Shown here: positions 1,292 through 61,357 of the stretch, piece after piece
Layout of the letters: each line of letters begins with the position of its first letter
How positions within the stretch are numbered: position 1 is the first letter of the stretch
From: a virus
Lineage: Duplodnaviria; Caudoviricetes
Strand: one strand, 5' to 3'
Length of the DNA: 64,000 nucleotides
IMG/VR virus record: IMGVR_UViG_3300046523_000171
Coordinates: 1,187-65,186 of that record
The notes under the pieces: model-generated
The model's database searches: none
Told to the model about the DNA's origin: nothing
What the model saw: only the letters and a program-made list of their open reading frames with translations
Program-made: the position numbers and the translations under genes

Positions 1292-3349
1292 TTAAGCAAG
1301 CGCACTTGCCATCTTTCCGAAGTCAAATTTTACAGCACCGCTAAATGGCTTTTCCTCTTCAGGCTTGCGGATCAAGTCGTTCTTGTCCCACTCGTCGGCC
1401 CACGATGGCGGGTTGTTCCAGTCGATACCTTCGACCTTCACGAACGACGACACGGCCACGCCGATGCAGTAGTACGACAAGTCCCATGCCTCGTTGCGGA
1501 CGTTCGTGTTGTGCTCCCATCCTTTCGGCGTGCGCACCTCGGAACAGAGTTCGCCGTAGAAGTCGTCATCGAGCCACGACGGCGTGCGGTACATGCCCTT
1601 GCCCGGCTCGATGCAGTCCAGGCGGCCGTCGAGGTCGTCCTTCAGGATCGTCGGGTTCAGCATGAGCACCGGCACGTCGCCGCGCGCCGCAGCCTTCACG
1701 TCCTTGCGGCTGCTGTCGGGGAAGCTGATTCGCGTGCGCGGCTGTCCTGGCTTGCTGTCGCCCTTCAGCAGCGTGAAGCGGCGATGCTTGTTCTCGCGTA
1801 CCAGCTTGCGGTAGAAGTTGTAGGCCATCGTCGTCGCGCCCTTCTTACCGCCCGAGTCGCAGCCGGTCATCTTGATCGACATGAGACGACCGGACCCATC
1901 GGCCAGGGGGTACTCGCGCTCGATGACCTGCTCGATCAGCAGATCCCAATCTTCGAGGTAGGCGTGCGGCTTCACGAGTTCGGGGTGCCCGTCGTGATCC
2001 AGGCGCTTCGACTTCTTGACGGGGAAGCGGTCGATCATGCACATGTCGAACGGATAGCCCGGCATGATGCCGAACACCTGCACCACGAAGCTGTCCTTCT
2101 GCACGTCGGCGGTCGCCAGCAGGAAGCGCACACCATCGGGCACGACCTTCTCGCCCAGGGTGAACTCGGCGCGGGCCTTGATCGTTTCCGGCAGGCGGAT
2201 CTCCATGCGCGCGCGGCTGTAGTACGGCTCGCCCAAGTCGTTGTTATAGAACTTCTTCAGCGTCTCTTCGGTGCCGGTTCGCTCGAAGTCGTCCATCGCG
2301 TCGAGGAAGGTCACGGTCAGCTTCTTCCAAGTCGTGAACGCAGCGGCGACACCGCGCAGCCAGAACGATGCGATCAGCGAGCGCACCGACTTTCCGAACC
2401 GCTGTCCGAACTTGTTGATCGCCTCGCCGTCCTTCACCCACATGCCCCACAGGTTCATTTCGTAGCGGTCGTCCGGCACGATCTTCTGCGCGCACTTCGG
2501 GCATTCCATATAAACCGTTTCCGCTACTTCGAGGTTCGACATGCCTTCCTTGCGGTCCCACTTCAGCATTTCAAACTTGCCCTCGAAGTAGTGATCGCAG
2601 TGCGGGCAGGGCCAGTACCAGCGGCGGCGGTCGCCACGGTTATACAGGCCGATGATGCCGTCGCACGGCGGCGCTTCGTGCGGGGTGCGCGGAATCCACT
2701 TGATGTCCTTCACCTCGCGCGACGGCGACGACTCGGCCACGCACATCGCGTTCGATCCGAAGGTCGTGGTTCGCTTCGCGGCCAGGTCGTACGGCTCACC
2801 CTCGCCGTCCACGTCGTCCACCATACGATCCCGGTCGGTCAGCACCACGCGGCCGATTGGCTTACCTGCCAGTTCGGTCGGCGTCGGCCAGGACAGGGAC
2901 AGCATCATTCCGGTGTTATAGAGCTTGTCGAACTTGTTGTCGTTGTCCGCGCCAGGCAGCAGCATCTTTCCGATCTCTGGTGAGTATCGGTTCAGGCGGT
3001 CGATACGGCGCATGGAGAAGTCGCGTGCCGCCGTGTTGGTCGGGCACACGATCATCATGTCCATCGGGTCCACCTTGATCGAGTAGGCGGTGCAGTTGAC
3101 CACCAGGGCGTCGGTCTTGGCCGACTGCGCCGGGCCGACGAAGATCATGCCGTTGTAGGTGGTGGATGCGAACACGTCCATCGGCTCGACCATGTACGGC
3201 GTCGTCGCGTTGTACCAGGGGCCGACGTACGCGCCTGGCGAGTTCACGACGCGGTACTTGGCGGCGGCGGCCGACACGGTGGTGCGCTCTGGTGGGCGCA
3301 GCATTTCCGCGCACGATACGACCAGGGTTTCGATTGAATCAAAGCGCAT
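1292..3349 (-). CDS. terL: Terminase large subunit (lambda GpA type)
   Basis: Walker A-like GPAQSAKT, Walker B VVLTDRD, ESSPS motif, CPHC/CPKC zinc site, RNEAWDLSYY nuclease motif. Confidence 0.95.
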   Translation of the reverse strand: MRFDSIETLVVSCAEMLRPPERTTVSAAAAKYRVVNSPGAYVGPWYNATTPYMVEPMDVFASTTYNGMIFVGPAQSAKTDALVVNCTAYSIKVDPMDMMIVCPTNTAARDFSMRRIDRLNRYSPEIGKMLLPGADNDNKFDKLYNTGMMLSLSWPTPTELAGKPIGRVVLTDRDRMVDDVDGEGEPYDLAAKRTTTFGSNAMCVAESSPSREVKDIKWIPRTPHEAPPCDGIIGLYNRGDRRRWYWPCPHCDHYFEGKFEMLKWDRKEGMSNLEVAETVYMECPKCAQKIVPDDRYEMNLWGMWVKDGEAINKFGQRFGKSVRSLIASFWLRGVAAAFTTWKKLTVTFLDAMDDFERTGTEETLKKFYNNDLGEPYYSRARMEIRLPETIKARAEFTLGEKVVPDGVRFLLATADVQKDSFVVQVFGIMPGYPFDMCMIDRFPVKKSKRLDHDGHPELVKPHAYLEDWDLLIEQVIEREYPLADGSGRLMSIKMTGCDSGGKKGATTMAYNFYRKLVRENKHRRFTLLKGDSKPGQPRTRISFPDSSRKDVKAAARGDVPVLMLNPTILKDDLDGRLDCIEPGKGMYRTPSWLDDDFYGELCSEVRTPKGWEHNTNVRNEAWDLSYYCIGVAVSSFVKVEGIDWNNPPSWADEWDKNDLIRKPEEEKPFSGAVKFDFGKMASALA

Positions 3350-3932
3350 CTGGATCTTCCTCTTCCTGCACTGCTGCAATGGCGTTCTCGGCGTTCTCGA
3401 TCACGGCCTGGTTCGTCGGTGCCTTGGTGAATTCCTCGATCACGGTGGCGTACAGCGTTTCCAGCATGCCGTCGCCCAGCGCCTTCACGATGCCGCGCTG
3501 GCGGTCGGTCAATTCGGCCTGGCGGTCCACCGCATCGGCGTTCAGGCGAACGCTCATCTTCACCAGCTTCATGAGGCCACCGACCACCTCGACGACGCGC
3601 GCCGTGGGCCACAGGTTGCCCTCGCGCTGCTCGAATTCCTGGCGCGACCGCTGGCCTGCCCAAAACTCCTTCGTCAGCATCTTCGGCAGGTCGTTGTGGT
3701 GCATCTTCTTGATGTACGTCTCGATGTCGTACGCGGGCTTCACGAGATACGGCGCGACCTCGTGGACCGCGTAGATGTCGGCACCGTTGCGCGTGCCCAC
3801 CGGCTTGCACTTATGGATCTTTGCGACGATGCTGCGGTGATCCATGCGGAACAACTCGCCAAGCTGCGACAGGTTCGCGCCGTCGTACAGGATGGCGCGC
3901 GTGGTGTTATCGGTTCCTTCAGTGCGTTTCAT
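3339..3932 (-). CDS. terS: Terminase small subunit (DUF1441-like)
   Basis: Directly upstream of terL; N-terminal HTH (LSQLGELFRMDHRSIVAKI); GNLWPTARV motif. Confidence 0.8.
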   Translation of the reverse strand: MKRTEGTDNTTRAILYDGANLSQLGELFRMDHRSIVAKIHKCKPVGTRNGADIYAVHEVAPYLVKPAYDIETYIKKMHHNDLPKMLTKEFWAGQRSRQEFEQREGNLWPTARVVEVVGGLMKLVKMSVRLNADAVDRQAELTDRQRGIVKALGDGMLETLYATVIEEFTKAPTNQAVIENAENAIAAVQEEEDPDAL

Positions 3933-4143
3933 TAGTTCGCTCGTCGATGAGTTGTGACAAGGCGCGGCGCGACAGGCGGCCGACGACCTCGATGTGATTG
4001 CGGTGGTAGGGTTTCAGCGGGCGGCTGCAATTGCGGAACGCCGCGTAGGTGGGATAGGCGATGCCGAGGACGAGGCATGCCTTTGTCGGGCCGAGGCCGA
4101 CCAGCGCCTCGAACTCGATTAACAGTTTATTTCGTTTATCCAT
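3919..4143 (-). CDS. Small HTH protein
   Basis: 74 aa with HTH-like GLGPTKACLVLGIAYPTYAAF; sits between helicase and terS. Confidence 0.6.
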   Translation of the reverse strand: MDKRNKLLIEFEALVGLGPTKACLVLGIAYPTYAAFRNCSRPLKPYHRNHIEVVGRLSRRALSQLIDERTNETH

Positions 4144-4206
4144 TTACCGACCTATCCATTGAATAGGTCGGCATCTTACATGCTGTCAGGCAACGCTAGA
4201 ACGAAT

Positions 4207-60110: not shown

Positions 60111-60694
60111 AGTGCGAACCTCGCAAATTGTCGGTTGAATTCATCCAGCACCATGCGACCAATCGGCGCGGCCGACTTCTCGGACACGTCGCGGAACACC
60201 TGATCGACGGACGGGCCGTACAGCAGCGCGACCTTGCCTGGCACCAGCCATGACGTGATCGCGTCGTGACGGTTGTTGAAGGACTGCCCAGGCTTGATGC
60301 GCACGGCCAGGCCGACGTTCCCGTTGCGCAGCTTTGTGAGCCATGCGTTCTTCAGGGTCGTCGTGCCGTTCGCGCGCTTCACGCCCACCTGCACGCCTAT
60401 GCGCGCACGCGAGCCGAGAGACGTGCCTGGTGCTGCGAATCGTGCCAGGCTCGTCGCGCGCTGGCGGGCCGTGATGACGGCTTCGAGATCGCCGGGGCGG
60501 GCTTTCTTCGTGACGCCGATACGGTCGCGGGTGAGGTAGTCTTTAGGGAAGGCGATGTCGTCGAGGATCGAGCGGCGGATCAGGGTCATACCGCCCCTGT
60601 CCGCTACCGTGTTGATCGCCAGTTGTGCCGCCTTGTCGGCAGCGCCGGGGAGCCGCTGGATCAGGTCTGCGGCGTCAAGTATTGAGATTGCCAT
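60107..60694 (-). CDS. Neck/tail completion protein (lambda Z-like)
   Basis: LAINTVADRG...LYGPSVDQVF. Confidence 0.7.
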   Translation of the reverse strand: MAISILDAADLIQRLPGAADKAAQLAINTVADRGGMTLIRRSILDDIAFPKDYLTRDRIGVTKKARPGDLEAVITARQRATSLARFAAPGTSLGSRARIGVQVGVKRANGTTTLKNAWLTKLRNGNVGLAVRIKPGQSFNNRHDAITSWLVPGKVALLYGPSVDQVFRDVSEKSAAPIGRMVLDEFNRQFARFAL

Positions 60695-61055
60695 CGTTCA
60701 GCTTTGCGACGTACCAGACCTGATCGGTCGGGCCGCAACGCGGATCGCGCGTGTCGATGGCGAGGACTTGGCCGCCGAAGGCCGGGTGAAGGATTTTCAC
60801 GCGACCACCGCGAGCGACCGTAACGAGTTTGGCGGCCAGTTCTTCGATGTCGAAGATCACCTTGTCGATGGTGTCGATGGTGACTGGATAGCCTTCGTTA
60901 TTCGGATCGCCCACGTTGGTCAACTTGTTGTGCCAGCGGACCCGCAGCGCAACCGGCACGTCGCCATCGTTGTACCAGTATTCCGCGTCCAGGGCGAAAG
61001 TCTTGTGAACGATGCGACGCGCCGCTTGCTTGGCTGCTGCGAAGTCGAAGGCCAT
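60675..61055 (-). CDS. Head-tail joining protein (FII-like)
   Basis: AKQAARRIVHKTFALDAEY...VRWH; position after MCP. Confidence 0.65.
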   Translation of the reverse strand: MAFDFAAAKQAARRIVHKTFALDAEYWYNDGDVPVALRVRWHNKLTNVGDPNNEGYPVTIDTIDKVIFDIEELAAKLVTVARGGRVKILHPAFGGQVLAIDTRDPRCGPTDQVWYVAKLNDGNLNT

Positions 61056-61060
61056 GACGA

Positions 61061-61357
61061 TTAGATCTCGTCGTCGGTCGCGGCCGGGGTTTCAGCAGCA
61101 GCAGCAGCAGCAGGCTTCTCTTCCTGCTTACCCTTGCCCTGGTTCTTGCCACCGTGCGCCTTCGGTGCTTCGGCAGGCGGCAGCTTCACTTCATTCGACT
61201 CGGCCGGTGCCGGGATCTTCGCCAGGGCGTCCGGCGAGGTCTTGCGAATATCTTCCAGTTCCGCGTCGGTCAGATCGACCACCTGGCCGGGCTTCACGCT
61301 GACGCGCTTTCCGGCGCGGTGCAGGACGAGGGTGTGGACTGCGATTCGTTTTGCCAT
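61061..61357 (-). CDS. Small capsid-associated protein ending TDDEI
   Basis: 98 aa directly after MCP. Confidence 0.65.
   Translation of the reverse strand: MAKRIAVHTLVLHRAGKRVSVKPGQVVDLTDAELEDIRKTSPDALAKIPAPAESNEVKLPPAEAPKAHGGKNQGKGKQEEKPAAAAAAETPAATDDEI

Follow-up and report, generated by a model that had tools for sequence, protein, structure and literature searches.

We have identified a short acidic C-terminal tag that recurs on proteins of a tailed phage, IMG/VR virus record IMGVR_UViG_3300046523_000171. The window, that is, the whole 64,000-nucleotide stretch analysed here, comprises bases 1187-65186 of this 65,186-bp record, which has direct terminal repeats, and its G+C content is 62%. 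Ten of the 72 window proteins with a complete C-terminus end in two acidic residues followed by Leu or Ile (written [DE]{2}[LI]), and shuffled proteomes of the same composition yield 0.14 such ends (at most 3 in 5000 shuffles). The observation is real and lies far above chance. Judged by their database matches, the carriers are mostly unrelated DNA-handling proteins, together with five small early proteins without known function (Table 1). The explanation with the best support, which we consider about an even call, is that the tag is a docking motif, similar to an SSB (single-stranded DNA-binding protein) tail and read by one or a few shared sites.

Genes were called with a codon-usage caller trained on long frames rich in G+C at third codon positions, which gave 73 genes, all but one of them with a complete C-terminus; for finding the tag, only the stop positions of genes matter. 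Whole genomes of relatives were run through the identical caller. In addition, 79 IMG/VR loci around the SSB gene were collected, in each of which tails from as many as seven families were read by tblastn followed by extension to the stop. Thirty clade representatives, with SSBs less than 60% identical, were used for the analysis of co-variation. Carriers were named from Pfam and PHROGs searches, of which the Pfam scans covered 30 window proteins. By protein similarity, the phage is placed with Chi/Nazgul-like siphoviruses. Its primase has 53% identity with the SS2019XI enzyme (from a Pseudomonas phage of the Casjensviridae), and the primases of FoX4, phiAxp-2, AH2 and BcepNazgul match it at 40-44% identity. 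Nearer to it are three uncultured IMG/VR genomes with primases 80-86% identical to that of the window, and the cultured relatives infect Pseudomonas, Achromobacter, Xanthomonas and Burkholderia.

An initial annotation of this DNA had listed a series of acidic protein ends, and every one of them was found at its stop, including DDEL at 4207 on the minus strand and at 14302, 29645, 32058 and 33125 on the plus strand, as well as all of the variant ends. It had also held that tail and lysis proteins do not end this way, and none of the genes in 33829-60694 (lysis, tail, tape measure) has a tag-like end. The excess over shuffled proteomes, which it had proposed to count, is borne out by the figures above and by a second estimate, in which the internal rate of the [DE]{2}[LI] tripeptide predicts 0.17 ends against the ten observed (Poisson P ~6e-15). 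DDEL occurs five times at termini and never internally in 20,788 residues. BLASTP among the tagged proteins returned no mutual similarity. Two unrelated high-GC phages served as controls, and ends of the form [DE]{2}-hydrophobic number two in D3112 and none in BcepMu; T7, run through the same caller, has no such ends save its two known DF ends.

The tails have the signature of a short linear motif. Nine tagged families from the four closest genomes have a pairwise identity of 0.72-0.94 over the last four residues, and of 0.26-0.41 over positions -6 to -12, against ~0.5 in 33 untagged families. Conservation of the tail among related phages, which the initial annotation had put forward as a check, thus takes the form of a conserved tip behind a diverging linker. 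The 20 residues before the tip are poor in hydrophobic residues (fraction 0.22 vs 0.31 in untagged proteins), a difference that is significant in 7/7 genomes tested. The SSB is the prototype carrier. An alignment of 66 sequences gave its AlphaFold2 (AF2) model, with a confidently predicted OB core, which Foldseek matches to the Enc34 SSB (5odl, TM 0.90) and to T7 gp2.5 (1je5, E 5e-7). Over the last ~30 residues the predicted local distance difference test (pLDDT) score falls from 68 to 47, and the tail is predicted to be disordered. The Enc34 SSB ends in ...DEDEV according to its cloning primer, and in its structure the last 11 residues are disordered while what can be traced of the tail occupies the beta-sheet groove of an adjacent molecule; without 21 tail residues, this protein binds double-stranded DNA (dsDNA) besides single-stranded DNA (ssDNA) (PMC5686142).

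Tags on shared families were found in 14 of 15 other whole genomes of the phage group. The [DE]{2}[LI] ends number 13, 10 and 12 in the three IMG/VR relatives, 9 in SS2019XI, 6 in FoX4, 7 in phiAxp-2 (with three more ending in Met), 4 in AH2, 10 in UF_RH7 and 10 in Smarc1 (with one more ending in Val). JS26 has nine EL ends, R22L five DI ends and Carli nine GL ends, and ten ends in the Chi-like FSL SP-030 read [DE]{2}-V or -I, eight of them being EV. No [DE]{2}[LI] end occurs in Nazgul, where 10 of 68 proteins end in GL against 0.4 expected. The families that carry the tag are constant across genomes, namely SSB, primase, helicase, exonuclease, small terminase (terS), RdgC and DUF7443; in relatives, the portal (as in FoX4) or the polymerase is also among the carriers. 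The flavour of the tip, EL, DL, GL, DI or EV, goes with the genome. SS2019XI has ten D-L and no E-L ends, whereas phiAxp-2 has eleven with E and one with D (Fisher P 3e-5). Flavour also differs between phages of a shared host, as in SS2019XI and UF_RH7 (both P. aeruginosa) and in AH2 and Nazgul (both Burkholderia), and on this comparison of tails it is set by more than the host alone. As a separate observation, UF_RH7 (a P. aeruginosa record; loci L143-L145) and Smarc1 (a Serratia marcescens record; loci L150-L152) have almost identical large terminases (terL), with tip branches of 0-0.007, and nearly equal sets of tails, which points to an unusually broad host range or to a doubtful host label on one of the records. 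Some distant relatives have other shared ends: DDGF on two proteins (L110), S/G-L-L on three (L119) and x-L-[DES] on three (L120).

Tips also vary together within a genome. In the 30 representatives, unrelated families of one genome have the last residue in common in 65% of pairs against 49% after permutation, and the last two residues in 26% against 13% (P ~2e-4 for each, values that are inflated by kinship between the genomes). The strongest pairs are primase-terS (z 5.0), helicase-terS (4.3), SSB-terS (3.1) and helicase-SSB (3.0). At the position before the last, SSB prefers D or G, and terS and helicase prefer E. Within the clade of the window, SSB has D at this position, and helicase, primase and terS have E, wherever they were read in ten loci (L042-L051). 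Such a family-specific preference at -2, as far as the tails can tell, argues for tuned recognition over mere acidity.

As a docking motif, the tag would present its run of Asp or Glu, closed by one aliphatic residue with a free carboxylate, on a flexible linker. The tip of the T7-type SSB of this phage would have spread to most of the proteins that handle phage DNA and to several small early proteins. The terminal Leu or Ile and its carboxylate may fit into a hydrophobic, basic-rimmed pocket, with the acid run steering by charge, so that the clients would have one or a few binding sites in common or be rivals for them. The phage would gain a private interaction code that joins replication, recombination and packaging. 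A stricter form of this proposal, in which a single dedicated reader of phage or host origin binds all of the tips as a clamp-less 'toolbelt' that brings enzymes of replication, recombination and packaging and some small early proteins together on phage DNA, and EL, DL, GL, DI and EV are lineage-private codes, seems unlikely to us.

Three known systems bear comparison. Bacterial SSBs have a DDDIPF tip that is found on SSB alone, and the partners carry the pockets. The tag resembles it in that a disordered SSB tail carries an acid run and, at the hydrophobic end, a free carboxylate, but the tag lacks Pro-Phe, and the tip is carried by 10-13 proteins, so that would-be partners are themselves tagged. 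A genuine DDDIPF ends the SSB of one distant relative (L112), where the two other tails that were read have different ends. In T7, the acidic tails of gp2.5 and gp4, which end in Phe, dock on the gp5 polymerase (PMC12339929). The phage studied here likewise has an SSB of the T7-type fold whose acidic tail is predicted to be disordered (PF10991, AF2, Foldseek), and the tails of its primase-helicase (DDDEL) and SSB (DDDDDL) are near-identical, each being an acid run with one terminal hydrophobic residue. It differs from T7 in having 10-13 carriers instead of two, RdgC, terS, a head-module protein and orphans among them, and in a Leu or Ile cap instead of Phe. The reader in T7, gp5, is a family A polymerase with a basic patch and a thioredoxin-binding domain, whereas the window polymerase belongs to family B and has no known thioredoxin-binding domain; moreover, relatives swap the polymerase family and keep the tags, and docking of the SSB tail on the polymerase is not predicted. 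In T4, gp43, gp55 and gp33 have C-terminal acidic/hydrophobic epitopes on divergent linkers that are interchangeable on the gp45 clamp (PMC2988020). With its unrelated proteins bearing a common C-terminal epitope on a divergent linker, T4 is the closest precedent for a logic of one reader and many clients. It differs in that Pfam scans of 30 window proteins detected no clamp family, in that the client set here is different and larger, and in the single hydrophobic residue of the tag. The principle of tail docking is thus already known from T7 and T4; what is new is the scale, the list of clients, the Leu/Ile cap and the persistence across a swap of polymerase family. A description of it in Casjensviridae did not come up in our literature searches.

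Should shared sites read the tips, the two-client system of T7 or the three-client system of T4 would be scaled up here to a dozen clients in replication, recombination and packaging. Orphan early genes could then be assigned to the DNA-metabolism network from sequence alone, a peptide of 6-10 residues would be a handle for fishing out the hub, and the phage group would offer a natural system in which to follow the drift of an interaction code between lineages. If there were a single reader, the tagged orphans would be new accessory factors of the replisome or of packaging. Cultured relatives suited to direct testing exist, namely Chi-like phages, Enc34, SS2019XI, phiAxp-2 and AH2.

The polymerase is the reader that the T7 comparison would suggest. 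Its assignment to family B in the initial annotation was confirmed by fold matches to archaeal and Pol-alpha family B polymerases (E 1e-13 to 1e-16). In 75 related loci, the gene slot that follows SSB is taken by a family B polymerase in 42 (the window included) and a family A polymerase in 33, and never both; the family A polymerases have a conserved ...KD end. Going by these loci, one polymerase family has been replaced by the other within one phage group. Tags are kept in the lineages of both families, and because they persist while the slot is swapped, the polymerase is unlikely to be a conserved reader. It had also been counted as tagged. Its DDEE end is indeed present, but it is a pure acid run without a hydrophobic tip, hence not a strict carrier. 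As a side observation, family B polymerases of AH2-like lineages and of many others (L053-L109) end in K-C-[RK]-[RK]-x-[DE]-x-L, a conserved Cys-basic-acidic-Leu end that differs from the client tag and shows no co-variation with it. SSB and polymerase share one reading frame in the window, with a single TAA and 23 sense codons between them (8367-8439, minus strand). This layout occurs in 9 of 42 relatives, not above the chance level of about one third, and is probably not a programmed read-through.

Other readers can be named. The ssDNA groove of the SSB is a candidate by analogy with the Enc34 crystal contact and with T7 gp2.5, whose tail competes with ssDNA. The large terminase is another candidate, as it is bound by terS tails in other phages and the strongest co-variation of terS is with primase and helicase. 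The third is a host protein. The host beta-clamp, which the initial annotation had suggested as a partner, is an unlikely one because the tags lack the Q-L...L-F pattern; the clamp-binding motif is QL[SD]LF or QLxLxL, with Gln-Leu first and two or three hydrophobic positions, and the tails have one hydrophobic residue only, with D or E before it.

Several results weigh against docking at shared sites, and some of them bear on the single reader in particular. No reader was found by AF2 folds, by Pfam scans of 30 proteins or by comparison of gene content with Xylella phage Salvo. Neither a clamp nor a peptide-binding domain was revealed by the Pfam scans, which covered those 30 window proteins out of the full set of open reading frames (ORFs) and would overlook a highly diverged clamp. 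The families missing in Salvo are DUF7443 (a tagged client itself), DUF7609, RdgC and those of window genes 50296-50610 (in the tail-gene region) and 34953-35363, a comparison with a single negative genome that is not decisive. In the AF2 model of the SSB, the tail does not dock in cis on its own OB fold, although its low confidence makes this uninformative. AF2 was also applied to the 954-residue SSB-polymerase read-through chain (genetic code table 6, partly paired alignment) and gave confident domains but no rise in confidence for tail and linker, whose pLDDT was 32-49. That the SSB tail is not placed on the polymerase in this fold is a weak negative, as the tip is not a free C-terminus there and the run gave no contact or predicted aligned error (PAE) output.

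The pattern of tips is itself imperfect. Salvo belongs to the same virus family and has no uniform tag, and because of it the tag, on the genomes compared, is widespread rather than family-wide. Tails of the polymerase and of the phrog_7721 protein do not co-vary with those of other families, and the latter has I or M at the tip where other clients use L. Two tips may occur in one lineage: DHGL or DF on primase and terS vs DDL on SSB and exonuclease, and, in another case, W[DE] on helicase, exonuclease and primase vs DI on SSB and terS. In the clade of the window, the exonuclease tag is degenerate or lost. The terL tree, with 79 rows, has only two switches of the dominant last residue, one clade having gone over to Ile and the Chi-like branch to Val, so the case for co-evolution rests on few independent events. 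The proposal of the initial annotation therefore divides. A functional short linear motif is favoured by the enrichment, the conservation and the presence of the same tip on SSB, while one common hub stays a conjecture, given the failure to find a reader, the polymerase and phrog_7721 tails that do not co-vary, the relatives with two tips and the roughly two switches.

The alternative that survives best is that the tail acts in cis as a nucleic-acid mimic, folding back on the DNA-binding surface of its own protein and so sharpening specificity or causing auto-inhibition. Cis-acting acidic tails are known for T7 gp2.5 and E. coli SSB and have been suggested for the Enc34 SSB, and such tails would require no common reader. 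All annotated clients handle DNA, which a cis-acting DNA mimic would fit equally well, and this is a further point against docking. The imperfect uniformity of the tips is also in line with it, as is the lack of a docked reader in the AF2 model of SSB and in the read-through fold. The dsDNA binding gained by the tail-less Enc34 SSB and the position of its tail in the DNA-binding sheet of a neighbour in the crystal (PMC5686142) point the same way. However, unrelated proteins of one genome have their last two residues in common beyond permutation, and whole proteomes differ in flavour (EL, DL, GL, DI, EV), neither of which a mimic acting within each protein would lead one to expect; in addition, the SSB tail is left undocked in cis by AF2, and several client bodies are acidic overall. 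We regard a role in cis as unlikely to account for the tag, and it may coexist with docking in trans.

Alternatively, the tag could determine stability, either by shielding exposed, disordered C-termini from C-terminal proteolysis in the host, a protection that the initial annotation had also proposed, or by scheduling the turnover of early and middle proteins. In bacteria, how a protein is degraded is known to depend in part on its last residues. The carriers are early or middle proteins and terS, whose gene lies in the minus-strand gene run of the helicase with a small ORF between them, and structural, tail and lysis proteins are without the tag. Avoidance of degrons, however, would permit many endings instead of a single one, phages that share a host species or genus differ in flavour, and a head-module protein and the FoX4 portal are tagged as well, which together render this explanation improbable. 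An ssrA-like degron is ruled out, as such C-terminal degrons read ...LAA with a non-polar Ala-Ala end, and the ends here are [DE]-[LI]. The endoplasmic reticulum (ER) retrieval signal KDEL/HDEL/DDEL, which marks eukaryotic secretory proteins bound by the KDEL receptor, is likewise ruled out for a tailed-phage genome, and its letters match by coincidence.

Selection on the tag acts on amino acids, because synonymous codons differ between tags: Leu is written CTT, CTC, CTG or TTA, and Asp is GAC or GAT. Glu in the tags is always GAA, owing to a genome-wide habit for the Glu-Leu codon pair, in which 78 of 87 internal pairs use GAA. An origin of the similarity in DNA or RNA (gene conversion, a repeat, a terminator or a ribosome-binding site serving the following gene) or in chance has virtually nothing left to recommend it. 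Some stops do lie against or within the start that follows, as with ATGA at 32055-32058, but the codons vary, the stops are mixed (TAA or TGA), the DNA downstream is unrelated between tags, the GAA habit is genome-wide and the Poisson estimate is far too small. A DNA repeat, ribosome-binding site or coupling signal is ruled out by the differing codons and flanks together with the GAA habit. Two features of the window's composition were noted alongside. Over the whole window, Glu-Leu is written GAA-CTN in 84 of 93 cases, though GAA and GAG are equally used overall, and CTAG is strongly avoided (13 observed, 46 expected).

The carriers and the degenerate cases are listed in Table 1 with the ends of their orthologues. 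Orthologue tails of the primase-helicase match the code of their own genome. The DUF7443 protein, which belongs to the head module, consists of a small domain, a long low-complexity linker rich in Ala, Gly, Lys and Glu, and the tag, and its gene lies just downstream of the major capsid gene. It is present with its own genome's code in 15/15 tag-bearing genomes compared, and absent from the tag-less Salvo. In lambda, the place after the major capsid gene is held by the packaging helper FI, an analogy of position. A search of the ESM Atlas with DUF7443 returned sub-threshold leads only.

Table 1. Window proteins with tagged, degenerate or related acidic C-termini
Protein	Coordinates	Strand	C-terminal end	Match	Ends of orthologues
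Small terminase, terS	3339..3932	-	EEEDPDAL (degenerate tag)	phrog_141, E 3e-43	EEDDEL, EDDDEL, EADDDL (sister genomes)
SNF2-family helicase	4207..6150	-	DDEL	Pfam SNF2-rel_dom + Helicase_C	D-E-L in 9/9 clade relatives read
Family B DNA polymerase	6214..8367	-	DDEADDEE	phrog_1252, E 6e-167	
T7/Enc34-type SSB	8437..9078	-	DDDDDL	Pfam PF10991, E 2e-21	
DUF2800 PD-(D/E)XK exonuclease	9134..10426	-	DDAFSDV	Pfam + PHROG	EDDL, ADEL, FDDL, DDGL, DDEV (canonical, elsewhere)
phrog_7721 protein, replication module	10433..10846	-	DDDDI	PHROG	I or M tips favoured
Prim-Pol/PriCT-2/D5-like primase-helicase	11738..14302	+	DDDEL	Pfam	
Early orphan, 53 aa	29484..29645	+	EEDDEL	no PHROG match	TEDDEL, DEEEEL, PEDDDL
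RdgC-family protein	29642..30616	+	DDEDL	Pfam PF04381, E 5e-30	DDDL, DEEL, GDDL, DDDL, DGEL, DDEV
Early protein, 97 aa	30579..30872	+	AYDEL	phrog_7200	AYDDL, SFDEL, EYDEL
Small early ORF	30907..31065	+	VDQDL (degenerate tag)		GIDDEL, GIDQEL
Early orphan, ~125-141 aa	31633..32058	+	DEDDEL (stop overlaps next ATG, ATGA)		
Early orphan, ~100 aa	32817..33125	+	NLDDEL		
DUF7443 protein	61061..61357	-	DDEI	Pfam PF24227	

Two neighbouring features were noted. Directly after the primase-helicase gene lies a gene for a PAPS-reductase-like protein (14310-15101, plus strand; PF01507/phrog_424). Inside the early gene block, a near-consensus sigma-70 promoter at 31066-31105 (plus strand; TTGACA, 17 bases, TATTAT) adjoins the stop at 31065.

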